A stretch of 64,000 nucleotides of DNA, from assembly GCA_947626855.1 (NCBI GenBank), contig CANQTT010000001.1:11695-75694 (forward strand). Reading direction: 5' to 3'. Below the pieces are notes generated by a model. That model was given only the letters and a program-made list of their open reading frames with translations. It made no database searches and was not told the DNA's origin. Positions 2,160 through 59,366 of the stretch are shown in pieces. This stretch comes from an uncultured Bacilli bacterium. Lineage in GTDB: Bacteria; Bacillota_I; Bacilli_A; RF39; UBA660. Position 1 is the stretch's first letter; each line of letters opens with the position of its first letter. The translations under genes were made by a program, and so were the position numbers.

Positions 2160-2160
2160 G

Positions 2161-2742: not shown

Positions 2743-2756
2743 TAGCTACCCATTTT

Positions 2757-3761
2757 TTATGCACTTTTTTGTTCATAATCTTTTTCTAATTTTGATACAT
2801 TTTCTAATAAAATACCAATTCCATCAATCGTCGCTGTTGCAGAATCAGCAGCAACTCTAACCGGAATATCCAACTCAAAAGATAATAATTTATCTAACCC
2901 ATTTAAAGAAGCACTACCTCCTACTAAGATAATTCCTTCTTTAGCGATATCCCCAGAAACTTCTGGATGAATTTCTTCCAACACTTCTTTAATAATATCA
3001 ATTAACTCATAGATATCTTCTTGAATGGCTTCTTTTAAATCTGTAGAACTAATCGTTATCGTATGTGGTAAGTTTGTTATTAAATCTTTACCACTCACTT
3101 CTACTTCTTTTTCTTTTTCAAAAAGAGAGCTTCCTTCTATCTTAATTTTTTCCGCTGTAGCATCCCCTATTAAAAGATGATATTTTTTCTTTAAATAACT
3201 AATAATTTGTTTATCAAATTTTTCTCCCGCAATATCGATAGAAATGCCTTTAATGATTTGATTGGAAGACAAAATGGCAAGGTTGGTTTGACCATGACCG
3301 ATGTCTATTATCATACTTGCTTTTCTCTTGTCCATATCCATTCCAGCTCCTAAGGCACTAGCTTTCATTCCATTTACTAAAATGGTAGATCGAGCTCCCA
3401 TTCTTTCCCCTATTTCTTGAAAAGCACTCATCTCTACCCCAGAGATTTCTTGGGGAACACTCATGACAATTTTTGGTTTAAAGAAAGATCTTTTGATAGA
3501 AGTTCTCTTCAAAAAATAATTCATTAATTTATCAGAAAGATCAAAATCAGCGATAATTCCTTTCCGAATAGGATGAACGATTTTTATCTTGTCTGGACAC
3601 TTTCCAAACATTTCCTTAGCTTGAGTTCCGTAAGCAACAACTTCTTTGGTCTCTACATCGATTGCTACCACACTAGGTTCTTTTAAAAGTAATCCCTGAT
3701 TTTTTTGAAAAATAGAGATGGAAGAGGTACCAATATCTACTCCAATAGCCTTTCCCAACAT
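2757..3761 (-). CDS. mbl: MreB/Mbl actin-like cell-shape protein
   Basis: GIDIGTSSISI phosphate-1 motif and LVGGSASL of the actin/MreB fold. Directly downstream of spoIIID as in B. subtilis spoIIID-mbl. Start is ambiguous: the ORF track uses GTG at 3773, an ATG lies at 3761. Confidence 0.75.
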   Translation of the reverse strand: MLGKAIGVDIGTSSISIFQKNQGLLLKEPSVVAIDVETKEVVAYGTQAKEMFGKCPDKIKIVHPIRKGIIADFDLSDKLMNYFLKRTSIKRSFFKPKIVMSVPQEISGVEMSAFQEIGERMGARSTILVNGMKASALGAGMDMDKRKASMIIDIGHGQTNLAILSSNQIIKGISIDIAGEKFDKQIISYLKKKYHLLIGDATAEKIKIEGSSLFEKEKEVEVSGKDLITNLPHTITISSTDLKEAIQEDIYELIDIIKEVLEEIHPEVSGDIAKEGIILVGGSASLNGLDKLLSFELDIPVRVAADSATATIDGIGILLENVSKLEKDYEQKSA

Positions 3762-3801
3762 AAAACCACCCACAGTATGAATTATTATACCATAACTCCC
3801 T

Positions 3802-4059
3802 TTAGTTTGTATCTAATTTCTCATACTTTTTACGCGTAGACTCTCCTCCACGGATATGTCTTACATTGGTATGATATTTTAAAATGTCTTCCACTTCTAA
3901 ATAAAGGCCTGGATTTAATGTTTCTAGTCTTTCATGTAAATCTTTATGAACTGTACTCTTCGATACTTTAAATACCCTAGAAATTGCTCGTATGGTATCT
4001 TTCGTTTGAATCATATACTTGGCTTCTAGTAGAACTCTTTGATTAATTTTTGAATTCAT
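3802..4059 (-). CDS. spoIIID: Stage III sporulation protein D (SpoIIID), mother-cell HTH transcription factor
   Basis: 85 aa. IRAISRVFKVSKSTVHKDLHERL helix-turn-helix is typical of SpoIIID. Conserved spoIIID-mbl neighbourhood. Confidence 0.8.
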   Translation of the reverse strand: MNSKINQRVLLEAKYMIQTKDTIRAISRVFKVSKSTVHKDLHERLETLNPGLYLEVEDILKYHTNVRHIRGGESTRKKYEKLDTN

Positions 4060-4098
4060 TTATCACCTCTACTACCAATATATGAAAAAAAAAGAGTA

Positions 4099-4719
4099 TT
4101 ATAATGTTTTATCATAATACTCTTCTGGATTTACAGAAATATTATCAATCATTAATTCAAAATATAAGTGAATTCCTAGTTCGCTATTCATAGTAGATTC
4201 CCCTGCTCTACCAATTAACATTCCTTTTGTTACCATATCTCCTTTTTTAACAGCGATATCAGTAATACTTTGATAGACTGTCTGCATATTAGAAGAATGT
4301 TTAATGGTTACTATATTTCCTAATAACGTATCTTCTTTCACATCAACCACTTCTCCATCCATAACTGCTATGGCATCAAAGGTTTCTCCATCCATAGAAT
4401 AACTTACGCCCGTACTCTGAATATAAGTGTCCTCATAATAAATAATAGAATTCTTTTGCTCCTCTGCAGAACCCCTGTAATCGTAATAATTTTGTGCGAT
4501 CTTTACATTGGCATTCGTATAAGGCCTTCCTATCGTAATAGATTGTTCACTAACAACTGGTAATTCAAATTCTTGCAAAATATTGTAAGCATGATTAGGT
4601 CCCATTATCGTTGCTATAGATGCACGATTAAAACTGGTTACTAGAAATCCTATTATTAATAAAATAACACCTGCTCCAATAACTACATAAACAACTGGTT
4701 TTGTTAAATATTCTTTCAT
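4099..4719 (-). CDS. Membrane-anchored degenerate LytM/M23 domain protein, SpoIIQ-like
   Basis: N-terminal TM helix. M23 fold ending GIHLYFEL (HxH degenerated to HxY). The YxxHxGxD motif is replaced by STGVSY (His to Ser) as in B. subtilis SpoIIQ. Located between spoIID and spoIIID. Confidence 0.55.
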   Translation of the reverse strand: MKEYLTKPVVYVVIGAGVILLIIGFLVTSFNRASIATIMGPNHAYNILQEFELPVVSEQSITIGRPYTNANVKIAQNYYDYRGSAEEQKNSIIYYEDTYIQSTGVSYSMDGETFDAIAVMDGEVVDVKEDTLLGNIVTIKHSSNMQTVYQSITDIAVKKGDMVTKGMLIGRAGESTMNSELGIHLYFELMIDNISVNPEEYYDKTL

Positions 4720-4764
4720 TTTCTCACCTCTATTAAAAGTGTGAGCATATTTCTTTTTTTTATA

Positions 4765-5682
4765 CTAATTTTTTATTTTTTTTAATTCTACACCCGTATA
4801 ATAATATTTTAATATCTCATCATAGCTATATCCTTCTTGAGCCATTCCTTCCGCACCATATTGACTCATTCCTACCCCATGACCATAACCTTTGGTAGAA
4901 ACAGTAACAGAATCCTTTTCTACATCAATAGAAAAAGCACTCGATCGAAGTCCAAGTAAAGAAGCGATTTCTTTTCCTGTATAAGTCTTTTCATTGATTT
5001 GAATTTCTTTAATTTTTCCAGCCTTAGTAGAATCGATGACGTTTACGGATATCTGACTGGTATTAGAAAGCTTTAACTTTTTTAAAAAGTCTTCCCTGGT
5101 AAAAATTTCTTCCTCTTGAAAGACAGGAGAAATTTTATCCCATTCGCTTTTAACGCTTCGTAAATACGGTACTTTTGACACAAATACATCTTCACTATTT
5201 TCCGTATATCCTGTACTAGTAGAAAAGAATAATGCTTCGGCTATTTTACCATTATAAACAATGTATTCATAAGAAGTAGAAGCTACTGCATCCACTATCT
5301 TTTGATAATACACATCATACTTATCTTTCCATTTCTGCTTTAGAGTATCCTGGTCTAAATAGACTTGATTTAAAACAGTATCAATAACATCATAATCATC
5401 TTTTCGATTCTTTAAAATTTGATACATCACATAACTTCTAGAAGCTACTGCTTGAGCTTTTAAAGCTTCTTCTTGAAAAGAAGCAGGCATTTCCCCTGCT
5501 ACTACCCCAATAACGTATTGTTCTAAAGGAACTTCGTCAATTTGACCTGTTTTAGATCGTAAGATTCTGACGATTGTATTCCTAGAAAATTGAAAAGTAC
5601 TTTCTTGTATTCGAAAAAAATACCAAATAATAATCGTAGGTATTACTATCATTAGAAAAGAAAAAAGTAGTACTTTTTTCAT
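4765..5682 (-). CDS. spoIID: Stage II sporulation protein D (SpoIID), cortex/septal peptidoglycan lytic transglycosylase
   Basis: SpoIID/LytB domain (YVIGVVAGEMPASF, AQAVASRSY, GYGHGVGMSQYGA). N-terminal signal anchor. Confidence 0.8.
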   Translation of the reverse strand: MKKVLLFSFLMIVIPTIIIWYFFRIQESTFQFSRNTIVRILRSKTGQIDEVPLEQYVIGVVAGEMPASFQEEALKAQAVASRSYVMYQILKNRKDDYDVIDTVLNQVYLDQDTLKQKWKDKYDVYYQKIVDAVASTSYEYIVYNGKIAEALFFSTSTGYTENSEDVFVSKVPYLRSVKSEWDKISPVFQEEEIFTREDFLKKLKLSNTSQISVNVIDSTKAGKIKEIQINEKTYTGKEIASLLGLRSSAFSIDVEKDSVTVSTKGYGHGVGMSQYGAEGMAQEGYSYDEILKYYYTGVELKKIKN

Positions 5683-21527: not shown

Positions 21528-21768
21528 AAAAAAAATCACACCCTGAATAAGGGCGTGATGACGCGGTACCACCTTAATTTTTATATAAATTTCTTTATAT
21601 ACTCTTTCCCTTAACGCGGTTCTTCGTTTTATTCTTTCCCATAAAAAGCTCCAGACCCATTCGAAATAATTCTCATTTACTTGCTTTCACCTAACCAAGC
21701 TCTCTTTAAAATTGTCGTTATTCTTCTTTCCTTCAATGCCTTTGAATGGCTTCATTATAGCATATCTT
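21528..21768 (-). promoter_or_regulatory. T-box riboswitch leader (putative Met specifier) with terminator/antiterminator, upstream of dut-metG
   Basis: Minus strand carries the T-box sequence AATTAAGGTGGTACCGCG and a terminator hairpin ATCACGCCCT-TATTC-AGGGTGTGAT followed by T8. Stem I region has AGAGAG and AGUAAAUGAGAA (candidate AUG specifier). Confidence 0.7.
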
Positions 21769-27844: not shown

Positions 27845-28690
27845 CTAATGATCCTCCTGCTTTAAATATTCCTGATAAACCTCATTTTTTTTCATTCCTC
27901 GTTCTTTGGCAACTTGTTTCATTGCATCCATTTTATTCATTCCTTCTTTTAAATAGATATTGATGTGTTCTTTTAAAGAAAGAGAAGAAAAATCAAATTT
28001 CTCTTTATTTCCCTCTACTATGATAACCATCTCGCCTTTCGCATCCATTATTTGAGGAAGAATTTCGGAAATGGTTCCACGGTAGACCTCTTCATACTTC
28101 TTAGTTATTTCCCGGGAAATACTAATTTGTCTATTTCCCAAAATTTTTTGCATACAAGTTAAGGTTTCTTCTATCCGATGAGGAGCCTCGTAAAAGATTA
28201 AAGTGGCTCTTTCACTCTTCAAAGAAGATAACTCTTTTTCTTTTTTAGAAGTTTTACTATTTAAAAATCCATAAAATAAGAATGGCATAGGAGCAATTCC
28301 TGAAGTAATAAGAGCGGGAACGAGAGCAGTCGCTCCAGGAAGAGCAACTACATGATATCCAGAGGCAATGACAAAACGAGCCAATTCATATCCTGGATCA
28401 CTTATGACTGGTGTTCCTCGATCACTTACCAAGCCAACCATTTTGCCATCCTGCAAATATTCTAGAATTTTTTGATGATTCTTTTCCTCATTGTGTTCAT
28501 GATTGGCAATCATCTTCTTTTTGATACCTAAATAGTTTAATAAAAGTCCAGTTTCTCTTGTATCTTCACAGAATAAAACATCAACACTCTCTAATGTTTT
28601 AACGGTTCGATAGGTTAAATCATCCATATTTCCAATTGGTGTTGGAATTAAATAGAGAGTGGGAGTTCCATCATAACTTTTTTGGCTCAT
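27845..28690 (-). CDS. rsmI: 16S rRNA (cytidine1402-2'-O)-methyltransferase RsmI (YabC-like tetrapyrrole-methylase fold)
   Basis: LYLIPTPIGN start and EDTR motif of the RsmI family. Conserved position next to the yabB-like methyltransferase. Confidence 0.8.
   Translation of the reverse strand: MSQKSYDGTPTLYLIPTPIGNMDDLTYRTVKTLESVDVLFCEDTRETGLLLNYLGIKKKMIANHEHNEEKNHQKILEYLQDGKMVGLVSDRGTPVISDPGYELARFVIASGYHVVALPGATALVPALITSGIAPMPFLFYGFLNSKTSKKEKELSSLKSERATLIFYEAPHRIEETLTCMQKILGNRQISISREITKKYEEVYRGTISEILPQIMDAKGEMVIIVEGNKEKFDFSSLSLKEHINIYLKEGMNKMDAMKQVAKERGMKKNEVYQEYLKQEDH
28117..28130. promoter_or_regulatory. Perfect Noc-binding-site (NBS) palindrome ATTTCCCGGGAAAT inside rsmI
   Basis: 14/14 match to the B. 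subtilis NBS consensus, with palindromic flanks (TATTTCCCGGGAAATA). Only such site seen in the window. An extended GC-palindrome is rare in this AT-rich sequence. Confidence 0.55.
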
Positions 28691-32343: not shown

Positions 32344-34083
32344 TTATCCATCATATTCTATCATATTTTCAAATAAATCATCAATGATATTTTTCTTAGT
32401 TGTAGGGTCTTTTTCAGATTCAAAAATTTTGTGGATATCTATCTTTTCCTCTTGATATTGATACTGATTTTTATTCTTATTATATTCATTTTTGATCGTA
32501 TTCCACTCTTCTTCATCAACAGCAATTAATTGATAATTTTCTTTAAATTGCTTTAGAAAAATTTTTTCTAAAGCCAACAACTCCATGTTAAAGGCCTCAG
32601 CTAAAAGATTAGTTTTATATACGAATATAATATTTTTATTACTAATCGCTTTTAATTCCCCATCGAATAGTAAAGAGATTAATTTACTATAGTCAGGATT
32701 CATTAATAAATCTTTCAAGCTTTCCATCTTTTCTTTAAATAGATTTCTATTTTTTTGAGAAACCGCTACTAAAGCATTATTAATTCTAATTTTTTTTAAT
32801 TCATTCAAATTTTGTAAAGCCTCTTCTGATAAACGGAATGTCAAATCAATGTTTCGTTTTTTTAAAGATGAAGGCTCTGAAACATTTTTTGGAGGTTCTT
32901 GAACATTTACTTTTGCTTGTTGTTCATTAGACTCTTGCTCGATATTTTCTTGCTTCACTTGAGTTTGGGAAATAATTTTATTTTCTACTATTGACTTTAT
33001 AGGAACAATTTCGTTTTCAGGTTCTTCCATCAATTTGATAAATTCTATTTCCAATAAAATTTTATTATTACTAGAATTCTTCATATTTCCCACTAACTCT
33101 GATAAAGAATGAATATAGTCATATAATTTTTTATTATTTACATTTATTTTAATCGTTTCATAATAGTCTACAGTCTCTGGAAAATAATTTGGGACATTGC
33201 AATACAAAATAATATTTTTTAATTCTTCAATAATTTCTTGTACGATTTTAACTAAATTTTTTCCTTGTTCCTCGTATTCCTCTATTTTTTGAAGCATCTC
33301 TACCATATTTTTATCAAAAACCAATTGAATAAACTGTTGTATTTCTTTTTTATTTATAGTTCCATTGATATCATGGATATCATTTAAAGTAATTTCATCA
33401 TTTGCATAGGATACTGCTTGATCCAACATACTAATAGAATCTCGTAAACCACCATCAGACAGAATAGCGATTTCCATTAATGCTTCTTCTGTGATTTTAA
33501 TATTTTCTACATCAGCGATATGTTTCAATCGGTCTACAATTTTATAATTACTAATCTTTTTAAAATCAAATTTTTGACATCTCGATAAAATCGTTCGTGG
33601 AATTTTATGAGGTTCTGTAGTAGCAAAAATAAAAATGATATGAGAAGGCGGTTCTTCCAAAGTTTTCAATAAAGCATTAAAGGCTTGATTTGTTAACATA
33701 TGTACTTCATCAATGATATATATTTTATATTTACTATTAGAAGGAACTAAACTAACTTTATTTCTTATTTCCCGAATTTCATCTACACCATTATTAGAAG
33801 CTGCATCAATTTCAATCACATCTATATTTTGATTATTATTAATTTGTTTACAAGAGATACATTCTTCACAAGGTTTTAAATTTGTTAAATTGGTACAATT
33901 TAGAATTTTTGCATATATCTTAGCAATGCTTGTTTTTCCCGTTCCACGAGGGCCAGTAAATAAGTATGCATGATTTACCATATTATTTTTAATGGCATTC
34001 GTAAGGGTTTTTATAATGACTTCTTGTCCTACAACATCTTCAAAATTTTTGGGGCGATATTTTCGATATAAAGCTTGATACAT
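32344..34083 (-). CDS. dnaX: DNA polymerase III subunits tau/gamma
   Basis: Walker A GPRGTGKTS, zinc module CTNLTNLKPCEECISC, and SRC arginine finger. Confidence 0.9.
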   Translation of the reverse strand: MYQALYRKYRPKNFEDVVGQEVIIKTLTNAIKNNMVNHAYLFTGPRGTGKTSIAKIYAKILNCTNLTNLKPCEECISCKQINNNQNIDVIEIDAASNNGVDEIREIRNKVSLVPSNSKYKIYIIDEVHMLTNQAFNALLKTLEEPPSHIIFIFATTEPHKIPRTILSRCQKFDFKKISNYKIVDRLKHIADVENIKITEEALMEIAILSDGGLRDSISMLDQAVSYANDEITLNDIHDINGTINKKEIQQFIQLVFDKNMVEMLQKIEEYEEQGKNLVKIVQEIIEELKNIILYCNVPNYFPETVDYYETIKINVNNKKLYDYIHSLSELVGNMKNSSNNKILLEIEFIKLMEEPENEIVPIKSIVENKIISQTQVKQENIEQESNEQQAKVNVQEPPKNVSEPSSLKKRNIDLTFRLSEEALQNLNELKKIRINNALVAVSQKNRNLFKEKMESLKDLLMNPDYSKLISLLFDGELKAISNKNIIFVYKTNLLAEAFNMELLALEKIFLKQFKENYQLIAVDEEEWNTIKNEYNKNKNQYQYQEEKIDIHKIFESEKDPTTKKNIIDDLFENMIEYDG

Positions 34084-34107: not shown

Positions 34108-34581
34108 TTATACACTTTTTGATTTAGAAATTAAAGTTGAAGAGCGTTTCTTTTGAAAGAACTGCTGAAGCAGATCTAAACATTCTGGACAGTCAACTTT
34201 TTGAATTTCTACGATATGATTATTTTTGGAATTAGATAGTAGTTTATCTATACTCTCCACATAACCAAATTTCGCATTTGCGGCTGCATAAACAATCTTT
34301 TTAATTCTTGCCTGGAGAAGTGCTCCACAGCACATGAGACAAGGTTCTAACGTCACATATAAAGTACAATCATTGAGTCTCCAGTCTCCTATCTTTTTGC
34401 ATGCCTGTTCGATTGCTAAAATTTCAGCATGAGCAGTGGCACATTTATTATGTTCTTTTAGATTATGTGCACGAGCAATAATTTCATCATTACATACAAT
34501 TACTGCTCCTACCGGGATTTCTTCCATATCAAAAGACTTTTTTGCTTCTTTTAAAGCTTCTTCCATATATTTATTTTTCAT
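34108..34581 (-). CDS. tadA: tRNA-specific adenosine deaminase TadA
   Basis: Deaminase zinc motifs HAEILAI and PCLMCCGAL. Start set to the ATG behind RBS GGAGAG; the longer ORF-track extension would run through a parS palindrome. Confidence 0.8.
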   Translation of the reverse strand: MKNKYMEEALKEAKKSFDMEEIPVGAVIVCNDEIIARAHNLKEHNKCATAHAEILAIEQACKKIGDWRLNDCTLYVTLEPCLMCCGALLQARIKKIVYAAANAKFGYVESIDKLLSNSKNNHIVEIQKVDCPECLDLLQQFFQKKRSSTLISKSKSV

Positions 34582-34592
34582 AATACTCTCCA

Positions 34593-34610
34593 ATGTTTCA
34601 CGTGAAACAT
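34593..34610. other. parS: parS centromere-like site (ATGTTTCACGTGAAACAT, perfect 18-bp palindrome)
   Basis: Core TGTTTCACGTGAAACA matches the ParB/Spo0J consensus TGTTNCACGTGAAACA 16/16. Lies between the SRP RNA 3' end and the tadA RBS. Confidence 0.85.
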
Positions 34611-34611
34611 A

Positions 34612-34691
34612 CAAAAAAAGCACACACATTCATTGACTCTTAAGGATGCTACCTTCCGGTCCTGACCTGATTCGAGTTTAAATGTTGTGCT
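34612..34691 (-). ncRNA. ffs: Small (4.5S-type) signal recognition particle RNA
   Basis: Minus strand reads AGCACAACAUU...AAUCAGGUCAGGACCGGAAGGUAGCAUCC...AAUGUGUGUGCU+U7. It contains the near-universal domain IV sequence CAGGUCAGGNCCGGAAGGNAGCA with a GGAA tetraloop. The 5' and 3' ends pair (AGCAC/GUGCU, ACAUU/AAUGU) into a single long hairpin ending in a U-tract. Upstream TTGCAT-17-TATATT. Confidence 0.65.
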
Positions 34692-34736
34692 GATATATAA
34701 TATATCTTATTTTAGAAAAAAATGCAATAAACTTTT

Positions 34737-34754
34737 ATGTTTCACGTGGAACAT
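34737..34754. other. parS: parS site (ATGTTTCACGTGGAACAT; reverse complement is the B. subtilis consensus TGTTCCACGTGAAACA)
   Basis: 16/16 match to the canonical B. subtilis parS on the opposite strand. It directly abuts the predicted -35 of the SRP RNA promoter. Confidence 0.85.
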
Positions 34755-34771
34755 ATTTTTTTCTTTCTGAA

Positions 34772-34789
34772 ATGTTTCACGTGAAACAT
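34772..34789. other. parS: parS site (ATGTTTCACGTGAAACAT), embedded in a 27-bp extended palindrome, 18 nt past the gyrA stop
   Basis: Identical to the first site. Extended arms CTGAAATGTTTCACGTGAAACATTCAG. Centre is 35 bp from the neighbouring parS. Confidence 0.85.
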
Positions 34790-34806
34790 TCAGAAAAAGA
34801 GAATGA

Positions 34807-37428
34807 TTATGACTCACTCTCTTTATCAACAGTTTCAGTTATTAAATCTTCCTCTTGGGAAATATTTCCCTCTTCATTATTTCCCATATTAGTTTGGGAA
34901 ATATCTTCTTTTTTGAGAAGAGCAACTGTACTTACTTTTTGATTTTCTTTTAAATTAATTAATTTAACACCTTGAGCTACTCTACCTGTTGAACTAACTT
35001 GTTCTAATGGTAAACGAATGATCATTCCACTATCCGTAATAATCATTAAATCTTCGTTGCCTGTTACTAACTTGAAATCAACGATTGTACCATTCTTTTC
35101 GGTAATATTGAGTGCTTTAACACCTTTACTTCCACGATGAGTCATTCTATATTCTTCTATTTTCGTCTGTTTTCCATAACCATTTTCTGTAATAACGAGA
35201 ACAGATTCATTTTCCAAGGCTACTTCAATACCTACAGCAATACCATCGCCTACTTCGATACCTCGAACACCAGATGCGGTTCTTCCCATGATTCTTACTT
35301 CTGATTCTTTAAAACGAATCATTCGACCATTTGAACTTGCTATTAATATTTCATTTGTTCCATCGGTCTTCTTAACATCTAATAACTCATCATCCTCTTT
35401 TAAACTAATAGCGATTTTACCACTATTACGAATATTATCAAATTCACTAATATTGGTACGTTTAACTAATCCACTTCGAGTACAGAAGACTAAATACTTA
35501 TTTTTCTCTTCTCTTTCGATTTTCAACATCGATTTAACGACTTCTTCTTTTTCTAATGGTAGTAAATTGATAATTGGTAATCCTTTAGATTGTCTACTAA
35601 AGGCTGGTACCTCATATCCTTTCATACGATAAACTCTACCTTTATTCGTAAAGAATAACAAATAGTCATGGGTAGTTACAGAAACTAATTTTTCCACAAG
35701 GTCTTCTTCATTAGTTGTCATACCTTTAATACCTACTCCACCTCTATTTTGAGTCTTATAAGTATCACTAGTAATTCTCTTAATATATCCTTTATTGGTT
35801 AAAGTTACGATAATATCTTCTACTGGAATTAAAGATTCATCATCAATATAATCAATCGCAGTCATATCAATAGAAGTTCTTCTCTCATCAGAATACTTAT
35901 TCTTAATTTCTAACATTTCTTTCTTAATGATATCAAGAACTTTTTGTTCACTTGCTAAAATACTCTTTAATTCTTCAATCAATTTCAATAATTCATTTAA
36001 TTCTTCTTCTATTTTAGCACGCTCTAAACCAGTTAATCTCTTTAAACGCAACTCCAAAATACTATCAGCTTGAATTTGGCTTAAACCAAAACGACTCATT
36101 AAAGCATCTCTTGCTTCTTCATCCGTTTGAGATTCTCTAATAATCCGAATGACTTCATCAATATGATCTAAAGCAATCTTATAACCTTCCAAAATATGGA
36201 CACGATTTTCAGATTTTTTCAAATCAAATCTGGTTCTTCGAATAATTACTTCTTTTTGATGATCAATATACTTTGAAAGAATGGCTTTTAATGGTAAAGT
36301 TTTTGGAGTTAGACCATCTAACATTAAGAAAATAATTCCATAATTTGTTTGAAAAGCGGTGTGTTTATATAAATTGTTTAGAACAACTTGTGGATTTGCT
36401 TCTTTCTTAAGTGTGATGGTTATTTTTACCCCATCCTTCAAATCGGTGTGATAATCCGCAATTCCATCAATAATTTTATTATGAACAAGTTCAGCTACTT
36501 TATTTTTTAATTCCATGGTATTAATTCCATAAGGAACTTCTGTTACAACAATACAATTATGACCATTGATTTCTTCTATAGATGCTCTACTACGAATAGT
36601 AATTGTGCCACGACCTGTTTCATACGCTTGACGAATTCCAGAATTTCCTAAAATGATACCGCCTGTTGGAAAATCTGGTCCTTTAATATATTTCATCAAC
36701 TCTAATGTATCAATATCAGGATTATCAATATAGGCAATACATCCATCGATTACTTCTCCTAAATTGTGAGGAGGAATATTGGTTGCCATACCTACGGCAA
36801 TTCCCATTGTTCCATTTACTAATATGTTAGGAAATCTAGATGGTAAAACTTTTGGTTCTTTAACCGTTTCATCAAAGTTTGGATCAAAATCAACCGTATC
36901 CTTATTAATATCTCTCAATAATTCAAGGGAAATCTTGGATAATCTGGATTCTGTATAACGCATAGCTGCTGCTCCATCACCCTCGATATTACCAAAATTT
37001 CCATGTCCATCAATTAATAAATATCTTTGATTAAAATCTTGAGCCATACGAACCATGGCTTCATAAATGGAAGAATCTCCATGGGGATGATAATGTCCCA
37101 TTACATATCCAACCGTTGTTGCTGATTTTCGATGTGGTTTATCTGGAGTATATCCAGATTCATACATGGACCATAAAATTCTACGATGAACAGGTTTTAA
37201 TCCATCTCTTAAATCTGGTAAAGCACGAGAAGCAATAACACTCATAGAATATTCCAAAAAGGAAGTTTCTACCTCGTTAACGATGTTATTTTCAGCTAAT
37301 CGATCTCTTTCATGAAAATATCCACTAAAATGTGTATTATCTACTAAAGCAGAGTTCTCTTCCACTTCTTCATTTTCAAGATTTTCCTCCGTTGTTTGCT
37401 CTTCTTCTATATTTTTTTCTTCTTCCAT
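34807..37428 (-). CDS. gyrA: DNA gyrase subunit A
   Basis: Active-site region AAMRYTE (catalytic Tyr), QRDR-like segment, and C-terminal beta-pinwheel repeats. gyrB-gyrA adjacency. Confidence 0.95.
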
Positions 37429-40603: not shown

Positions 40604-41062
40604 TTATCTATTTTTTTCCAATTTTAACTCATATAATTTTGCCTTTAACATAACAGCTCGACAATATTGATTTTCAATAGAATAAAAAGATACTGGAACT
40701 TCTATTTTTTGATCATTTTGAAACTCAATGGTGGTTCCATAAAAATTAGCCTTATATCCTTTTATTTTATTAAGAGAAACCCATAAATTTTCACTATTTC
40801 GAACAGAACTAGTAGGAAAAAATATAAGATTTCTACTCTCCTCAATAATGATAGGAAATTTAGACTTAATTCCAGTTAAATATTTTGTTCCTTCACAACG
40901 ACCTCGGTAGCTACTTCCATAGAACTTACAGTTGTAATCAATAATTTTATGCACATTCTTGTTCACAACATATTCAACTTCTTCTTCATAGACTTTAGAA
41001 CAATTATCATCAATTGGTACGATTGCTAAAGTAGAAGAATTAATCTCATATTCCTCTAACAT
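40604..41062 (-). CDS. comK: ComK-family competence transcription factor homolog
   Basis: YEINSSTLAIVP, CKFYGSSYRGRCEGT, PIIIEESRNLIFFPT and EVPVSFYSIENQYCRAVMLKAKL align with B. subtilis ComK segments YEVNGATIAVLP, CRFFGSSYAGRKAGT, PIMVDPSNQIFLFPT and ELPISYNSFENQVYRTAWLRTKF. 152 aa, so it lacks the ComK C-terminal tail. Confidence 0.7.
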   Translation of the reverse strand: MLEEYEINSSTLAIVPIDDNCSKVYEEEVEYVVNKNVHKIIDYNCKFYGSSYRGRCEGTKYLTGIKSKFPIIIEESRNLIFFPTSSVRNSENLWVSLNKIKGYKANFYGTTIEFQNDQKIEVPVSFYSIENQYCRAVMLKAKLYELKLEKNR

Positions 41063-43786: not shown

Positions 43787-44200
43787 ATAATCACCCCCAC
43801 TTTAAAGATTTTCTACCTATATTCTACACTATTTGCCTTAAAAAAAAAAGAAAATGTGGATAATTTTTAGGAATCTTTTTATCCACACAACTTTGCTTTG
43901 ATTTTTGAATTCAAAATGGAGTTATGCACATTTTTGTGTCTTTTTTATTCACAAACAATATTCTTTGTGAATTTTTTGTGCACAAATATGTGCATAAATG
44001 TGTATAACTAGGTATTTTATCGTAATTTTAATAGTAAAAAAATGTGCATAACTGAAAAATTATTCACAATCCTTTCGACAAATCTATTTTATGAACATTC
44101 TCTGAATGTGCATGATTTTTTCTCCCTTTCTCTAAAATTGTTTGACAAATAGGAAAAAAATCTATATAATTGATAAAGCAAAGAGGGATTTTATACAATT
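43787..44200. other. oriC: oriC upstream element: cluster of at least 10 DnaA boxes
   Basis: Perfect boxes TGTGGATAA (43855-43863) and TTATCCACA (43879-43887). Variants TTATGCACA, TTATTCACA (x2), TTGTGCACA, TGTGCATAA (x2), TGTGTATAA and TGTGCATGA. Confidence 0.8.
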
Positions 44201-46422: not shown

Positions 46423-47397
46423 ATGAGTTTTATAGAGGAAATAAAAACTGCAGCAAAACAAAGAGGTAAAAGAATTGTTTTACCTGAGGCAATGGATGAA
46501 AGAGTTGTCGATGCAGCCGTTATTGCCCAGCAAGAAGGAATTGCGAAAATAATTTTAATAGGAAAACCATGTAAAGATATTTCTTTAGATGGAATGGAAT
46601 GTATTTTGCCAGAAGAGGATAGTCGATTAGAACTATTTATTGATCAATTGTATGAACTTCGTAAAGAAAAAGGAATGACGAAAGAAGAAGCAAAAAGATA
46701 CCTTCTTACAGATTCCATGTATTTTGCTTGTATGTTAGTAAAATTAGGTTATGCCGATGGAATTGTGAGTGGTGCTTGTCATTCTACTGCAAATACGCTT
46801 CGTCCATCTCTTCAAATTCTTAAGACGAAACCTGGAGTTAAATTAGTATCTTCTTTTATGTTAATGATTGTCCCAAATTGTAGTTATGGAGAAAATGGTA
46901 CTTTTTTATTTTCAGATTGTGGTTTAGAGCAAAATCCAACTTCAGAAAAATTAGCGGCTATAGCTGGTAGTAGTGCTTTAAGTTTTCAAAATTTAGTCCA
47001 TAAAGAACCAAAAGTAGCTTTCCTTTCTCACTCTAGTAAGGGAAGTGCGAGTCACCCAGATGTCGATAAAGTAAAAGAAGCATTAGAAATTGCTCAGAAA
47101 GAGTATCCACAATACGAAATGGATGGTGAATTACAATTGGATGCTGCCATTGTTCCGGAAGTAGCAGCTAGTAAAGCTCCTAATAGCTCTGTAGCTGGGA
47201 AAGCCAATGTTTTAATTTTTCCTGATTTGGATGCTGGTAATATTGGTTATAAGTTAGTACAACGTTTAGCGAAAGCAGAAGCCTATGGACCTATTACGCA
47301 AGGAATGTCTAAGCCAGTTAATGATTTATCACGAGGTTGTTCAAAAGAAGATATTGTAGGAGCGATTGCCATTACAGCTCTTCAAGTAGAGGAATAA
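46423..47397 (+). CDS. pta: Phosphate acetyl/butyryl-transferase
   Basis: Family motifs LPEAMDERV, SGACHSTANTLRP and NDLSRG. 324 aa short form. Confidence 0.7.
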   Translation: MSFIEEIKTAAKQRGKRIVLPEAMDERVVDAAVIAQQEGIAKIILIGKPCKDISLDGMECILPEEDSRLELFIDQLYELRKEKGMTKEEAKRYLLTDSMYFACMLVKLGYADGIVSGACHSTANTLRPSLQILKTKPGVKLVSSFMLMIVPNCSYGENGTFLFSDCGLEQNPTSEKLAAIAGSSALSFQNLVHKEPKVAFLSHSSKGSASHPDVDKVKEALEIAQKEYPQYEMDGELQLDAAIVPEVAASKAPNSSVAGKANVLIFPDLDAGNIGYKLVQRLAKAEAYGPITQGMSKPVNDLSRGCSKEDIVGAIAITALQVEE

Positions 47398-48872: not shown

Positions 48873-49622
48873 ATGGAAAATCTTGAAAATCAAGTAGCTA
48901 ATCAAACACAACCAAAATTAGAGCCTGTTGATTCAGAGACAAAAAAACAAGCAATGAAATTATTTAATAGCTTGCTTTTAGATATTGATAAAAATTTTGA
49001 AGAATTAGCGTGGTGGATTCAAATTATTGATGATACCCAAAAAGAAGTTGAAAGCGAAATGAATGCTTATGAAACTGCTAATCCATTGATGGATGTTGAT
49101 TCTGCAGAATATAAAAAATATCTTCAATTCCAAGCTGATAGGAGTTTTCTTAGTCGTATAAAAGATATGATTTATGATAGAGTTTCTGAGAAAGTAACGG
49201 AAGAACAATATGATCAGTTTTTGCAATTAGTAGAGACACGTCCTGATATGTCTCATAATCAAGAAGTGCCGCAACATTTAGAATCAGAACTTTCAGCGGA
49301 GATGGAACTTCCAGATGTAGAGGTAAGTAGTAATCAAATAGAAGTTCCAGAAGTACATAGTGATTCAGTAGTAAGAACTCCACTTACCGATACTAATGCC
49401 CCTGCTACAGCACAAATTTCAGAATCAAAATTTCAAGATGAGGAATTGTCAGCGTTGTTCAAGCAAGGAATTGTGCACGAAGGCTCAGGTTACAGGGATA
49501 AAGATGGCATCCTTTGGATTAGTGAGGAAGAGTATCTAAATTTTTTAAGGGAACAGAATGATTCTTTCGAAAATGTTGAACTAGATGAATATGGAAATGG
49601 TTCTACAGGTAAAAGAATTTAG
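48873..49622 (+). CDS. Acidic hypothetical protein (249 aa) inserted between mnmE and mnmG
   Basis: ORF with its own spacing and an upstream GAGGGAAG RBS. No recognisable domain. Very acidic. Confidence 0.4.
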   Translation: MENLENQVANQTQPKLEPVDSETKKQAMKLFNSLLLDIDKNFEELAWWIQIIDDTQKEVESEMNAYETANPLMDVDSAEYKKYLQFQADRSFLSRIKDMIYDRVSEKVTEEQYDQFLQLVETRPDMSHNQEVPQHLESELSAEMELPDVEVSSNQIEVPEVHSDSVVRTPLTDTNAPATAQISESKFQDEELSALFKQGIVHEGSGYRDKDGILWISEEEYLNFLREQNDSFENVELDEYGNGSTGKRI

Positions 49623-52300: not shown

Positions 52301-52400
52301 TTTCTTTATAAATTTTTCAAAAAAATATTTCCCAATACTTCTTGTATTATTTCCCAAAGTATATTATAATCTTTTTATAAGATGGAAAAGAGGCAGATCT

Positions 52401-53975
52401 ATGGATGAGACAAGAGCTAAAGTTGTAGATTTAGACTTAAATGATATCCTACCTAACCGCTTTCAACCTCGTATTAAATTTAATGAAGATGCTATTATTG
52501 AGCTATCGGAATCTATCAAGGAACATGGTGTTATTCAGCCAATTATTGTAAGACCAATTGGTGATAAATACGAGATTATTGCTGGTGAGCGAAGATATAA
52601 GGCAAGTATTTTAGCTGGAAGAGATACCATTCCAGCGATTATTTCTAGTTTTAATGATAAAGATAGTGCAGAGGTAGCCTTAATTGAAAATGTACAACGG
52701 AGAGATTTAACACCTATTGAAGAAGCTGTATCTTATAAAAAAATACTAGATATGAATTATTTAACGCAAGAACAATTAGCTGTTAAGTTAGGAAAAAGTC
52801 AGTCAGCTATTGCCAATAAGATTCGCCTTTTAAATTTATGTGATGAGGTTCAAGAAGCCTTATTAGAAGAAAAAATTTCGGAAAGACATGCTAGATCCTT
52901 ATTAAAATTAAAAGAAACAGAAAAACAAAAAAGTATGTTAAAAAGAATTATTGAAGAACGTTTAACTGTAAGAAAGACAGAGGAGGAAATAGAAAAAATG
53001 AATACCTTTATAACAAATCCAATTGATGATGTTACCACGAATAATGATAATCCTACTATGAATAGTCAAAATCCTAGTGGACAAACAGAATCAAAACCTT
53101 TAGATATGCAATCTCTATTGATGAGTGAAACCCAGAAACAAGCAGCTGCTGTAGATGCAGCAATGGCTCAACCGGTTGTTCAACCACAACCTTCTGTAAT
53201 GTCAGAGCCAGTTTCCGTATCACAACCATCCGTGAATCCAACTCCAGTGGAGACTACACAATCCCCTCTTCCTGCTGTTGATTTAGTTTCTTCTGGTATG
53301 CCGTCTACTCCAATTGTGGAGACTCCAACAATAGCTTCTCCTTCTATGATTGCTCCAGATTCTCCATCAACAACACCAATGCCTATGTTCACAGTTCCAC
53401 AGATTGATCCTCAAAATTCTCAACCAAGTACAGTAGCAGAAGAAAAGCCTTTCAATATGGCGGATTTGTTGGCAACTCCTGCTCAAAGAAGTACAACAGA
53501 GACTTCTTCTACTCCTTTTGTAGCTCCTACTTCTGTAGGAAGTACGCAAACTATATCAACCCCTGCTGCTCCAGCACCTCAGTCTTCTTCTTTTGGAGCA
53601 CAAACCATTCCAGCTACTCCTATTTTGGAACAAACTCTTCCAACATCCTTTATGCCTGACCCAGTAAGAGCGGAAGATAATAATTCTGAAGGAGATACAG
53701 TAGTAGCTATTTCTAGTACACCATCAACACCTAATGAATCTAGAAGTGAGGAAAAAGTTGATATTCAACCAATTATTATAACGGATTATAATAAGCAGTA
53801 TGATCCAGTATTGCCAGCAAGTGCACAACCTGTTGAAAAGGTTGATTTTAAGCAAATTATTAATTTGATAAGAGAATTAAATAATACCATTGAGAAATGT
53901 GGATATACGATTGAGACTGAGGAATACGATTTGGAGAAAGAGTATCAGGTTGTTTTTAAGATTAATAAAGAATAA
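52401..53975 (+). CDS. noc: ParB/Noc-family DNA-binding protein (Noc-like), with a long Pro/Ser/Thr/Gln-rich extension and a small C-terminal domain
   Basis: ParB N-domain ILPNRFQPR and GERRYKA. HTH LTQEQLAVKLGKSQSAIANKIRLL. IPAII, EEKISERHARSLLKLK and LTVRKTEEEIEKM resemble B. subtilis Noc (IPAII, EKKITERHARALIPLK, LNVKQTEDRVVKM) more than Spo0J. Gene position after rsmG matches noc. About 320 aa of low-complexity P/S/T/Q sequence follow. Confidence 0.7.
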   Translation: MDETRAKVVDLDLNDILPNRFQPRIKFNEDAIIELSESIKEHGVIQPIIVRPIGDKYEIIAGERRYKASILAGRDTIPAIISSFNDKDSAEVALIENVQRRDLTPIEEAVSYKKILDMNYLTQEQLAVKLGKSQSAIANKIRLLNLCDEVQEALLEEKISERHARSLLKLKETEKQKSMLKRIIEERLTVRKTEEEIEKMNTFITNPIDDVTTNNDNPTMNSQNPSGQTESKPLDMQSLLMSETQKQAAAVDAAMAQPVVQPQPSVMSEPVSVSQPSVNPTPVETTQSPLPAVDLVSSGMPSTPIVETPTIASPSMIAPDSPSTTPMPMFTVPQIDPQNSQPSTVAEEKPFNMADLLATPAQRSTTETSSTPFVAPTSVGSTQTISTPAAPAPQSSSFGAQTIPATPILEQTLPTSFMPDPVRAEDNNSEGDTVVAISSTPSTPNESRSEEKVDIQPIIITDYNKQYDPVLPASAQPVEKVDFKQIINLIRELNNTIEKCGYTIETEEYDLEKEYQVVFKINKE

Positions 53976-55081: not shown

Positions 55082-55366
55082 TTATTTTAAATTTCTATTT
55101 TTTTCATATGTAAAATTAGTTGATTTTATGAAACTAGAATTCGCTTTGTCTTTATTAGAATTTCTATCTAACGTATTTTCAGAATATGGTTTTACAAAGA
55201 AAGCTCTTTTGATTTCATTAATCTCTTCTGCCCGAAATTTCACTAAATCTCCCACATTTACGGAATTATCAATATCACTATCCAAAAACAGATAGCTATC
55301 TTCTGGTGTGACGATTGTACCACTAATCCCATTATATTCTTTTACTTTTCCAATACTAAATGACAT
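55082..55366 (-). CDS. Degenerate cold-shock-domain (OB-fold) like small protein, translationally coupled to the upstream 1336-aa ORF
   Basis: GKVKEYNGISGTIVTPEDSYLFLDSDI...VGDLVKF parallels the CspB pattern GKVKWFNSEKGFGFIEVEG..DVFVHFSAI...EGQAVSF, but the RNP1/RNP2 aromatics are replaced. Its start overlaps the stop of the upstream gene by 11 nt. Confidence 0.45.
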   Translation of the reverse strand: MSFSIGKVKEYNGISGTIVTPEDSYLFLDSDIDNSVNVGDLVKFRAEEINEIKRAFFVKPYSENTLDRNSNKDKANSSFIKSTNFTYEKNRNLK

Positions 55367-58300
55367 AATTTGTATTCACTCCTTTTTCTTGTACATAGAC
55401 TTGAACTAATTTTCTAGCTTCCTCTAATTCTCTTTTAGCCTCTGGATCTGTTGTAATTATTTTTTCATGGATTACTCCTATTGCATCCACATAAAGATAC
55501 CAATCATGATTTGCAAATCCATATCTTACTTCCTTTTCATCCAGAATTGGAAATTCTAAATATTCATAGTTTTCACCAGCCATCAATCTTTGAACAGAAT
55601 CAATTCGTCTTATATAAGATACTATTTCTTTCATTGAATGAACCTCTACAACCTTATCTCGAGCTGGTAAATAAGTAGGAAGATTTCGCTTATCAAAATT
55701 GATTGGAACTAATGCATTATCATCTCTAGAAGTTGCAAGAACAATTGCATATCTGCCAACATCACAATAAGAAAGAGTTAATCCTTCTCGGACATTAGAG
55801 ATACCTAAGTTTTGCGTTGGTAAGCCGTCTGCAGCATATTTATCATGCAAAACAACATTATCGATAGGCATCCATCCATCCCGCTCGTAATCCTCCTGAC
55901 TCCTTTCAATCATGAGTTGAGCAATTCGTTTACAAGCTTCTACAATATCTTTATCTGAGTATAAATAAGGATTACAGGATTTTCTAAGTTCATTTAAGAA
56001 AACAGTATTTCCATTTCGAAAACCACTTACCCTTGAAATATATTCTCCTGTCTCTGGATCTTGAAACCGAATATGGAACCCATTTTTATCTTCTAAACAA
56101 AATCTAAAAAGTCCTTCCCCAAATCCCCCAATTCGCATACAAGCTCCTGTTCTCTCTCCATGCGTAAGATTACATGGGTTAGTAAAATTTCCAACAATAA
56201 CTTGTAATTTCTTTGTCTTTGTTACATCAAGTGTTTGATTAAAGGTTGGAACCGTTACTTCCATTCTTTCATAATTCCTTCTTGTCCATGTAACAGCCTC
56301 TCTTAATCTTATATCTGGATTCATTCTAGAACTATTTTCTTGAGGATCAGCCTTAATAATTCTTGCATCTTCACTTCCTAATATTAAAGAGTAGACATTA
56401 GATGTCGCCGCATAAATCTCTGCTTGCTGAATGATATTAGTAAGACTAAAAGAAACATCATTAGAACCGTTTTGCAATCTTTTCCTTTCAGCACTATAAA
56501 TTTCTGAATAGTAGGAAATAAAAGCGGCAAGATTGTATATATCAGTTTCAATACGAACTGGTGGTTGAGCCATAAAATTTATTAGAACATCTGGAATCGC
56601 TAATGATTTGCTTAAACTTTTTTTCAAACTTTCATACAAAAGCTTTGCTTCTTTATCATTTTTATCAAAAGATAAAATCCTTTCCAAATGTTTCAAATTT
56701 ATTCCTCTTAATATTCTAAAAAAATTAATAGAAGATTCTGGAACATCATATTCCCATTTTACATCATGCATTTGAGAATAATATTGTTGTCTTTCTTCTT
56801 CTGACATTTGCGATATTTTATTTTTCAAAAAACTACCAATAATTTTTTGATGTTTTTGCATGATAAGATTTCTCTCTAAATCATCTGTTCTTCTACGAGT
56901 AACAAAATAATCGATGCAATCCATAGCCAAATCCAAACTAAGTCCTTGACTCATTAATTCTTGTTCTAACTCTTCTTGATAAGTCTGCATTTCTATTAGA
57001 AATTTAGGTAATTTACTTCTAGCATCCATACTATCGATATGACTAGATAAAGACAAATCGGATGCCATTTGTTCCATGCCATGAACTTCTCGATAATTTT
57101 CACGTTCTACCCTTATATAATAGTCCATTATAAAATGTAGCATATCCAAATAGAATTCTCTATCTTCTGTATTAGCTTTTATCTTGCTCGTGATCATTCG
57201 CAATAATTGAAAAGGATTGGAATATTCTCTTGCAATTTCTGCATAAGCACCGTTTTTTTCTTCCATAAATTTTTTATAAAATTTACTATCTAAAAGAAAA
57301 ATTTCTGGTCCCCCAAGCTTTTTAAACTCTTTATTCAATTCTTCATATTGTGCCTTTAAACTTTTTAAATGTTCTGATAAAGATTCATTATATGGTTCAA
57401 GCTGAGCTTGTTCGGATAGTGTCTTTATCTGTTCCCGTAGTGACTCCATTTGATTCGATAGAACAATAACAGAATCAAAAGATTGGTCAATGGAGAGGAT
57501 TAAATTGTGAAAAGAATTAACAATTTCTGGATGTTGTCTTGGAAAACCATATTGTATGACTGAATCATAAGCATTTCGTAATTGATCAATCGTCATTTTT
57601 CGTTGAGAAAATAAATCTAATAAGCGATTGAATTGATTATTATCATACTTAAGAATAGCGGCAAGATTCTCATCTTCTAAATAATGAATAATTCTTAAAC
57701 CAAATCGTTCTTTCAAAGCATCTAGATGAGCAGCATTATACCCTCTTGTTTCTACAAAATATTCTTTTAATATTTTGTATACTTCTTCAGAGCAAACAAA
57801 AGAATGATTATCATCTGAATAAATGACTTCAAATAGTTGATTCCTACTAATTGGAAAAGAAAGAAGTGTTTTCAGAATAATTGGTTTTTTCCAAATAGAT
57901 TTTCCTGTTTTAAGACATTCAGAAATACATTCAAGATAGGTATAGTTTTGTTTAATAACTTCCACAAGTTGTTTTTGTGATTCTTCACTTAATTGTTCAA
58001 ACATATCTTGTGAAGAAAGACTACATAATCTAAAAAAGAGATCATACTTTTTTTTATTTATTAGTTTTTCTGAAAATAATGGATCTATTTTTAATATCAG
58101 TTCTATAATTTTTTCTTGGAATTCATCATTTCGAATTTCTATGACATGATTTAAAAATAATTCACTGTCAAAATTAAAGCTAATTTGACTAATGTCTAAG
58201 ATAGAATTTAAATTGCTAAAAAGGAAATTATTCAAATAATCGGGGCAAGCTTTCATTATGTAATATGAATTTCCATTCAAAATTTCTCTAAAAACTAAGT

Positions 58301-59366
58301 TGATAACTTTTGTTCTAGTTTGCATGGGCACGTCCCAAAACAAAATACTATCGCTGCTGCCACTTGTAACAAAAGCTTCCAAAAAGGTATCGTCTTGTAA
58401 TAAATCATAAGCATTATCTGGAAAAATTCGAAATGCTTTACCGTCTTTCATTTCTGAAAAAATAGTATTATAATCTTCACTATTTTTCTCGATACTGATA
58501 TCATCACTCATTATGTTCAAAGCTAAATCCAAGCGTCCTACTCTTTTGAAATGTTCAATGATTTGAGTTTGTTGCTCTTTCGTTAAAATATGGCAAAAAG
58601 CATTAATCAAAATATCTCCGAAAGTAGTTTCATTCAATATTCGATTTACCAAATAGGACACATATTGTGGATCAATATCAGATTGCTCATCAGCTATCAT
58701 TAAAAGAGTTTGAGTGGGCAAGCGATTAGCAGTGCCGTCATCGATGAGTGCGGCAAGCTTTTTTTTGCGATAATGGTTAAAAAGCAAACTATTAATACAA
58801 TTAGAATGATATTGATGAAAAGGAAAGTTATCTAAAATAAAATCAATATCCGCATCCTTTGACAAATGACAATCCAAGGTAAAAATTTCAAATTTTCCTT
58901 CTTTTAACAATCTTTTAATCAAGTTACTTGATAACCAAATTTTTTCATTAGTTTTTGAATTCCTAATAAGTTTTTGATAAGCTTCTTCCATTAAGGATTG
59001 GTAGATTTCTAGTGGAAAAAGAGATTTTATTTCCCCTTCAAAATTTTCACCAAAATCAAAACAATTATTTATGTATTCCCTAGCATATAAAATACCTATC
59101 TCTAAATCAATGAATTGGCTATTTTCATCAAAAAAAAGAGAATTAAAATTTATATCATAAGTATAAATTATTTTTTTTAGTTCTTCCCATAATTGGTTCC
59201 AGTTCACTTTTTTTTCTATCGCTAAATGTTTAAAAAATGTCAATGCAGCTTCATCATTTTTTAATAGATACAATTCGTTGGGGGTTAAAGAAAAATCCCC
59301 TCTTTGCATTTTTTCTTTTAAATTTTGGACATTTTCTTCATATGTTTCTATGATTTCTTTGTTCAC
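55356..59366 (-). CDS. Large cytoplasmic hypothetical protein (1336 aa) with no recognisable domain
   Basis: Continuous ORF with a GTG start behind GGTGG. No signal peptide or TM. Central coiled-coil-like segment. C-terminal about 330 aa are Gly/Asp-richer and look globular, with Cys (TGACMRIGG) and later His/Asp residues. Confidence 0.6.
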   Translation of the reverse strand: MNKEIIETYEENVQNLKEKMQRGDFSLTPNELYLLKNDEAALTFFKHLAIEKKVNWNQLWEELKKIIYTYDINFNSLFFDENSQFIDLEIGILYAREYINNCFDFGENFEGEIKSLFPLEIYQSLMEEAYQKLIRNSKTNEKIWLSSNLIKRLLKEGKFEIFTLDCHLSKDADIDFILDNFPFHQYHSNCINSLLFNHYRKKKLAALIDDGTANRLPTQTLLMIADEQSDIDPQYVSYLVNRILNETTFGDILINAFCHILTKEQQTQIIEHFKRVGRLDLALNIMSDDISIEKNSEDYNTIFSEMKDGKAFRIFPDNAYDLLQDDTFLEAFVTSGSSDSILFWDVPMQTRTKVINLVFREILNGNSYYIMKACPDYLNNFLFSNLNSILDISQISFNFDSELFLNHVIEIRNDEFQEKIIELILKIDPLFSEKLINKKKYDLFFRLCSLSSQDMFEQLSEESQKQLVEVIKQNYTYLECISECLKTGKSIWKKPIILKTLLSFPISRNQLFEVIYSDDNHSFVCSEEVYKILKEYFVETRGYNAAHLDALKERFGLRIIHYLEDENLAAILKYDNNQFNRLLDLFSQRKMTIDQLRNAYDSVIQYGFPRQHPEIVNSFHNLILSIDQSFDSVIVLSNQMESLREQIKTLSEQAQLEPYNESLSEHLKSLKAQYEELNKEFKKLGGPEIFLLDSKFYKKFMEEKNGAYAEIAREYSNPFQLLRMITSKIKANTEDREFYLDMLHFIMDYYIRVERENYREVHGMEQMASDLSLSSHIDSMDARSKLPKFLIEMQTYQEELEQELMSQGLSLDLAMDCIDYFVTRRRTDDLERNLIMQKHQKIIGSFLKNKISQMSEEERQQYYSQMHDVKWEYDVPESSINFFRILRGINLKHLERILSFDKNDKEAKLLYESLKKSLSKSLAIPDVLINFMAQPPVRIETDIYNLAAFISYYSEIYSAERKRLQNGSNDVSFSLTNIIQQAEIYAATSNVYSLILGSEDARIIKADPQENSSRMNPDIRLREAVTWTRRNYERMEVTVPTFNQTLDVTKTKKLQVIVGNFTNPCNLTHGERTGACMRIGGFGEGLFRFCLEDKNGFHIRFQDPETGEYISRVSGFRNGNTVFLNELRKSCNPYLYSDKDIVEACKRIAQLMIERSQEDYERDGWMPIDNVVLHDKYAADGLPTQNLGISNVREGLTLSYCDVGRYAIVLATSRDDNALVPINFDKRNLPTYLPARDKVVEVHSMKEIVSYIRRIDSVQRLMAGENYEYLEFPILDEKEVRYGFANHDWYLYVDAIGVIHEKIITTDPEAKRELEEARKLVQVYVQEKGVNTNYVI

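Follow-up and report, generated by a model that had tools for sequence, protein, structure and literature searches.

The three palindromes that flank the small SRP RNA gene (ffs) between gyrA and tadA in the window, the whole 64-kb stretch of DNA analyzed here, are most probably functional chromosomal parS sites that make up the origin-proximal centromere of a lineage of uncultured gut Bacilli. We put the probability of this reading at roughly 0.8. The earlier note on this DNA had already called the palindromes parS, and the assignment is supported by their consensus sequence, their position close to the origin and their strong conservation at the same place in related species.

Three palindromes around the SRP RNA gene

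A pattern scan of the window located exact matches to TGTTNCACGTGRAACA at 34594-34609, 34738-34753 and 34773-34788, and no further copy elsewhere in the 64 kb. Each of the three forms an 18-bp palindrome together with a flanking A and T (Table 1), and all agree with the 16-bp consensus TGTTNCACGTGAAACA. In shuffles of the window that preserved dinucleotide composition the mean number of matches was 0.05, even with two mismatches permitted, and six strand-hits were reached in 0 of 100 shuffles. The 271-bp region is 100% identical in an independent metagenome assembly (ERZ27060228, locus L088), so the cluster is not an assembly artefact. The pattern scan, the shuffles and the second assembly thus confirm the three exact matches reported in the earlier note.

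Table 1. Coordinates of the parS sites, the Noc-binding site (NBS) and the neighboring genes and signals in the window.
Feature	Position	Strand	Description
NBS	28106..28121		perfect 16-bp TATTTCCCGGGAAATA, inside the rsmI coding sequence
dnaX	32344..34083	-	downstream of tadA
tadA (tRNA adenosine deaminase)	34108..34581	-	best NCBIfam match NF008113, 138 bits, slightly below the 150-bit curated cut-off
parS site 1	34593..34610		ATGTTTCACGTGAAACAT, exact match; directly after the SRP RNA T-run
small SRP RNA (ffs)	34603..34701	-	RF00169, 62.7 bits against a gathering score of 40; Rfam boundaries approximate
predicted ffs promoter	34699..34727	-	-35 TTGCAT (34727-34722), 17-nt spacer, -10 TATATT (34704-34699)
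parS site 2	34737..34754		ATGTTTCACGTGGAACAT (TGTTCCACGTGAAACA on the minus strand); exact consensus match, tolerated N position
parS site 3	34772..34789		ATGTTTCACGTGAAACAT, exact match; starts 17 nt past the gyrA stop codon
gyrA terminator-like hairpin	34797..34823	-	spans the stop codon, then T-run, then parS site 3; fold z = -5.1
gyrA	34807..37428	-	NF004043, 1149 bits; upstream boundary of the centromere spacer
dnaA	42434..43786	-	with the GC-skew switch marks oriC
Noc-like gene	52401..53975	+	sole ParB-family gene in the window; 524 aa, follows rsmG

The sites are set among gyrA, the small SRP RNA gene, tadA, dnaX, ybaB and recR, which follow one another in that order on the minus strand. 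Site 2 ends 9 nt before the -35 hexamer of the downstream ffs promoter, and a single nucleotide separates site 1 from the tadA ribosome-binding site GGAGAG (CTCTCC on the plus strand, 34586-34591). For the ffs promoter, the ffs terminator and the ribosome-binding site of tadA, the earlier note gave an essentially correct description. Its placement of site 3 just after the gyrA stop codon also stands, but what it took for a 27-bp extended palindrome around that site is an imperfect extended hairpin of ~33 nt (34764-34796) with a one-base bulge. The flanks of site 3 are 88% identical to those of site 1 over 34 nt and the closest relatives carry only two sites (see below), which suggests that site 3 is probably a local, recent duplicate. 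The sites are spaced 144 and 35 bp apart, their context is not repeated, and they do not form head-to-tail repeats of the sopC type.

RNA folding places the start of the ffs helix near 34691 and the end of the T-run near 34611. The ffs promoter (TTGCAT-17-TATATT) was read by eye from the sequence and is conserved in four relatives (L003, L005, L009 and L012). Neither this promoter nor the gyrA terminator was called by a simple consensus promoter and terminator scan, and conservation and folding were used instead. In relatives, an equivalent hairpin followed by a T-run lies ahead of the first parS after gyrA.

The sign of the GC skew changes near 44000, and the dnaA-rpmH spacer (~43787-44200) marks oriC. 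The distance from the parS cluster to dnaA and the skew switch is 7.6-9.2 kb, in agreement with the 8-9 kb from dnaA estimated previously. For the source genome, the cluster would mark the chromosomal centromere and confirm the location of this DNA in the origin region.

Other features of the window were recorded alongside. A ComK-family gene (40604-41062, minus strand; PF06338, E = 4e-41) lies between dnaN and recF, a placement kept in L083 and L210. The usual origin-proximal gene order is broken by a phosphotransacetylase gene between jag and mnmE (46423-47397) and by a 249-aa ORF with no family match between mnmE and mnmG (48873-49622). A 1336-aa ORF on the minus strand (55356-59366) has no Pfam match. 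Farther to the left, a T-box leader on the minus strand (21546-21745), whose 93.1 bits coincide with the gathering score, precedes a dUTPase gene and then a methionyl-tRNA synthetase gene. The left end of the window (1794-5682) carries cotJB, a cotJC-like Mn catalase gene, spoIIID, spoIID, an M23 peptidase gene and mreB, as does L085. These sporulation-type genes suggest an organism that forms spores or once did, with a low-GC (~30%) genome.

parS in the gyrA-dnaX spacers of related Bacilli and in other bacteria

A scan seeded with GyrA yielded the gyrA loci of 80 related species of uncultured gut Bacilli with GyrA identities of 72-92%, whose records are variously labelled Bacilli, Erysipelotrichaceae or Tenericutes. 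These loci contain 289 exact TGTTNCACGTGNAACA sites, and 289 of 289 lie in the intervals from the gyrA end to the dnaX start, 90 kb in total; the remaining 1.30 Mb of the 80 loci contains none. The earlier note had named a palindrome dispersed over hundreds of loci unrelated to the origin as the finding that would overturn its reading. Both the 64-kb window and the relatives' 1.30 Mb are free of additional copies, and a dispersed repeat was rejected as a reading because this DNA has no copies beyond the gyrA-dnaX locus. We instead read the gyrA-dnaX interval as a probable lineage-wide centromere locus, and not as the site of a dispersed repeat or an RNA hairpin.

Copy numbers were counted in the 55 loci that span the complete gyrA-dnaX spacer; the other 25 contigs stop short of dnaX. 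Exact sites per complete spacer range from 0 to 12 with a median of 4: at least one is present in 44 of the 55 loci, at least three in 34 and at least five in 22. L024 and L063 have no copies. An exact site is absent from 11 of the 55 complete loci, several of which retain degenerate copies, and two of the four closest relatives (L004 and L005) have degenerate copies only, so the system can apparently be lost in the clade. Expanded arrays are seen in L017, L037, L048, L066, L074 and L075, with up to 12 sites in 1.65 kb, and a module of NBS, 11 bp and parS is repeated within the expanded arrays of relatives. Of the 25 contigs that end before dnaX, most break off no more than ~1.5 kb from gyrA and often within an array, as if the assembly had failed at the repeats.

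Two sites are present in four close relatives (L003, L006, L009 and L012), where they match window sites 2 and 1 in position: the first immediately precedes the ffs promoter, and the second separates the ffs T-run from the tadA ribosome-binding site. A parS is retained 10-11 nt ahead of TTGCAT in close relatives. More distant ones also carry parS in the tadA-dnaX spacer or in extended non-coding DNA on the upstream side of ffs. The association with the SRP RNA gene that the earlier note had stressed looks incidental, since the sites of relatives occur in any of the three gyrA-to-dnaX spacers.

The spacers differ in structure as well. L075 and L037 each have seven copies at a period of 38-39 bp and are true tandem arrays (38-bp period and 6.4 copies in L075). 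Perfect parS sites of L066 and L048 stand within AT-rich DNA that has otherwise diverged, and Tandem Repeats Finder detected no array structure in these two loci; either their spacers are diverged or their units are longer than 500 bp. Across 284 sites of relatives, conservation of the flanking A and T is 98%. Perfect 16-mers with such conserved flanks in an otherwise diverged spacer argue that selection acts on the parS site itself. A common variant, TGTTCCACGTGAAACA, has one half-site altered at the N position of the consensus and no compensating change in the other half-site. Because the change is uncompensated and falls at a tolerated position, the variation is consistent with recognition by ParB and not with a selected hairpin.

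The lineage would accordingly provide a natural series in which the centromeres, all at a single locus, carry 0 to 12 parS sites, some of them in tandem arrays and some mixed with NBS. Why parS sites cluster and vary in number is treated as an open question in reviews (PMC7333895), and such a series could help to address it.

The earlier note considered so tight a cluster unusual, a judgment that does not hold in general: it rested on a comparison with B. subtilis only. We scanned metagenome contigs for a perfect parS with a second one 8-38 bp on and found at least 120 such loci, with GC contents from 26 to 71%. Among the 120 loci listed, 69 encode a ParA homologue, 55 have the parS pair at most 400 bp from the parA start, and 28 contain three or more parS sites within 300 bp. 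According to reviews, the number of parS copies ranges from 1 to 20-23, clustered near the origin, with 20-23 origin-near sites in Streptomyces coelicolor and Listeria innocua and parS1-4 in P. aeruginosa (PMC7333895; PMC7022226). Together the metagenome loci and the reviews indicate that for bacterial centromeres a tight grouping of parS is nothing out of the ordinary. The lineage-specific aspects are the location away from parAB, the dynamics of copy number and the mixing with Noc sites. A search of the literature for parS adjoining ffs or gyrA, or for ParB or Noc in Erysipelotrichia or Mollicutes, returned nothing relevant.

Individual metagenome loci illustrate the range of settings. L118, an unrelated metagenome contig of 35% GC, has 15 parS sites in 1 kb (1044-2027) about 1 kb upstream of dnaA. 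In L196 a pair lies directly upstream of tadA-dnaX, and pairs adjoin mnmG in L164, L167 and L204.

The Noc-like protein and the search for a cognate ParB

The only ParB-family gene in the window encodes a Noc-like protein that scores 287.5 bits against TIGR04285, below the curated cut-off of 315, with model positions 1-196 of 255 aligned. At positions 173/179/184/201, ParB carries the residues RTAG and Noc the residues QKKR (Jalal et al., PMC7383237). The Noc-like protein has Q173, K179, N184 and R201, three of the four QKKR residues, and neither Q173 nor R201 varies among the 97 orthologues with a readable motif out of the 120 matches listed. In a deep mutational scan, R at position 173 was invariable in parS-specific variants, and the QKKR variant was switched fully to NBS (PMC7383237).

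The window contains one perfect NBS (Table 1), and the same NBS is found ~6.7 kb downstream of gyrA in many relatives. The relatives' loci hold 95 perfect NBS, and their density in the parS spacers is 11 times that in the rest of these loci. An NBS lies at most 60 bp from a parS in 17 species, with an offset of exactly 27 bp ten times. This enrichment and the fixed offset point to ParB/Noc-family biology at the locus. Within the relatives' loci, perfect NBS form a sequence class separate from parS, with no intermediate forms. From the Q173-type residues and the presence of perfect NBS in the window and in relatives, we conclude that the Noc-like protein is predicted to bind NBS and not parS. 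The TIGR04285 score, the Q-K-N-R residues and the perfect NBS in the window also uphold the earlier description of the sole ParB-family gene as Noc-like.

Partial NBS occur at two further places in the window. Between rsmG and the noc-like gene, immediately ahead of the latter, two direct half-sites TATTTCCCAA stand 22 bp apart (52326-52357); they might constitute an autoregulatory site. A further four (GGGAAATA and TATTTCCC) are packed into 50 bp at the gyrA 3' end (34857-34903), 70-110 bp from parS site 3. They code for repeated peptides of the (G/D)(N/I)ISQ type, and their grouping may be a coincidence of this repeated coding. In several relatives, a complete NBS is found ~20 bp from the parS that comes first after gyrA.

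In B. subtilis, Noc requires an N-terminal amphipathic helix to function (PMC4331003). The Noc-like protein of the window has no such helix: it starts MDETRAKVV, six residues before the start of the Noc model, its ORF has no possible upstream extension, and all of its orthologues likewise lack an N-terminal helix. Its linker is ~265 aa long and rich in Pro, Ser and Thr. The noc-like gene of the window species is a single 524-aa ORF in three assemblies. In L083, L084, L209 and L210, which come from different assemblies, the N- and C-terminal halves are in different frames and make up two or three ORFs; this could reflect a real gene split, recurrent frameshifts in the linker or assembly error. 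Specialist interest would center on the lack of a membrane helix in the Noc-like protein and on the missing parAB operon; the three parS sites are textbook elements.

B. subtilis Spo0J and Soj served as tblastn queries against the window and 82 loci. The search for a parS-type ParB or ParA matched only the Noc-like gene, which bears out the previous statement that the window has no soj/spo0J pair. Family scans of the checked window ORFs revealed no ParA and no second ParB, and none was present in the same-species loci that overlap the window and reach ~10 kb past its left end. The neighborhoods of the noc-like gene in four relatives contain no soj-spo0J, nor any other ParA or ParB. A look-up of the protein at the window's right end gave no record. 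A protein search seeded with the N-terminal half of the Noc-like protein retrieved only Q173-type orthologues and no R173-type ParB among the 120 matches listed. Because perfect sites are strongly maintained throughout the lineage, we infer that the cognate parS-type ParB is encoded outside the 64-kb window.

A proposed centromere, alternative readings and known systems

The mechanism we propose follows what is established for ParB and parS. A CTPase of the ParB/Spo0J type, parS-specific and with R at position 173, would nucleate on each 18-bp site, close as a CTP-dependent clamp and then slide onto the flanking DNA. The resulting partition complex, ~8 kb from oriC, would position or organize the origin and load SMC. 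Partition might proceed without ParA, as in Streptococcus pneumoniae and Staphylococcus aureus, since no ParA is encoded near the origin here. The spacers downstream of gyrA would represent a lineage-wide hot spot where parS is gained by duplication and lost by decay, with the window as a small three-copy version in which site 3 is a probable recent duplicate. The Noc-like protein would bind its separate NBS sites and not parS. ParB on the DNA adjoining the ffs promoter and the tadA ribosome-binding site could also affect transcription. One study describes ParB of P. aeruginosa as potentiating repression of the promoters adjoining parS3 and parS4 (PMC5521831), and B. subtilis Spo0J has little such transcriptional effect (PMC7022226).

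Some of these observations would also suit a different protein partner. It is quite unlikely that the Noc-like protein is the only ParB-family protein of the genome and binds both NBS and parS, as a single-protein system with two types of site. Such a system would account for the finding of a single ParB-family gene in the 64 kb around oriC, for the missing soj and spo0J beside the noc-like gene in the window and four relatives, and for the interleaving of NBS and parS at fixed spacing in 17 relatives; ParB variants of dual specificity have, moreover, been obtained experimentally (PMC7383237). Yet all 97 readable orthologues among the matches listed have Q173 and R201, whereas parS-specific variants always carry R173 and the QKKR variant went over fully to NBS, and perfect NBS are kept as a distinct class without intermediates. 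Loss of ParB from the genome, with the palindromes left as decaying neutral DNA, is very improbable. All three window copies are perfect including the flanking A and T, one of them is apparently a recent duplicate, and 289 exact copies persist across the lineage in otherwise diverged spacers, against which stand the mutated copies of L004 and L005, the lack of any copy in L024 and L063 and the failure of tblastn to find ParB in the window and 82 loci.

The remaining alternatives assign the palindromes to transcription, and we consider both extremely unlikely. One of them takes the palindromes for RNA or DNA hairpins, and not for sites of protein binding; as such they could terminate, process or attenuate the transcripts of gyrA, ffs or tadA. 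This would suit the location of every site at the edge of a transcript, the longer hairpin around site 3 and folds whose stability exceeds that of shuffled sequence. However, the parS hairpins have no following U-run, gyrA and ffs have terminators of their own, up to 12 copies occur in the long non-coding spacers of relatives, and the sequence is the universal parS, which in other phyla is found mostly in parAB promoter regions. The hairpin reading was rejected because changes in one half-site are uncompensated in the other. The distances of site 2 to the -35 hexamer (9 nt) and of site 1 to the tadA ribosome-binding site, which it abuts, could alternatively mark operators of an unrelated transcription factor that regulates ffs and tadA, and the 10-11 nt spacing to the -35 hexamer is kept in close relatives. 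In more distant relatives, however, the promoter spacing varies and the arrays reach 1-2 kb from any promoter, and the motif is the exact parS consensus.

We also considered an extension of the parS centromere, which we regard as rather unlikely. After loss of the soj-spo0J genes beside noc, a composite parS/NBS centromere may have arisen downstream of gyrA, where the Noc-like CTPase clamp, with a long disordered linker and no membrane helix, would work alongside a relocated orphan ParB or in its place. If this were true, Noc would have been repurposed from nucleoid occlusion to origin organization.

A functional parS centromere, the reading we favor, can be set beside several known systems. 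The parS sites of B. subtilis are dispersed and mostly lie within genes. The palindromes described here share the 16-bp consensus and the origin-proximal position of the parS-Spo0J system of B. subtilis and other Firmicutes, and their expected role is likewise ParB nucleation and SMC loading. Unlike in B. subtilis, the sites of this lineage all lie in non-coding spacers downstream of gyrA, their conservation extends to 18 bp, and no soj-spo0J operon accompanies noc or rsmG. The doublets and triplets of parAB promoters and the reviewed clusters resemble the present one in having several parS sites within tens to hundreds of bp near oriC; unlike the parAB-promoter pairs, this cluster has no parAB nearby and flanks ffs and tadA.

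The F-plasmid centromere sopC consists of 12 tandem 43-bp repeats, each with a SopB site. The seven-copy arrays of L075 and L037, with their period of 38-39 bp, are similar in design, but they are chromosomal and contain canonical parS, and the three copies of the window are not tandem. Streptococcus pneumoniae and Staphylococcus aureus have ParA-less ParB-parS systems with parS near oriC (PMC7333895). The window resembles them in that ParA is missing from the origin region; the orphan parB is known in the two species and presumed here. As in the Noc-NBS system, the Noc-like gene follows rsmG, its product has Q173, K179 and R201, and the genome contains a perfect NBS. Unlike in that system, the protein combines a linker of ~265 aa with the lack of an N-terminal amphipathic helix, and the NBS of relatives are concentrated in the parS locus. 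On this comparison, the triplet is best regarded as an ordinary chromosomal parS element at a lineage-specific position.
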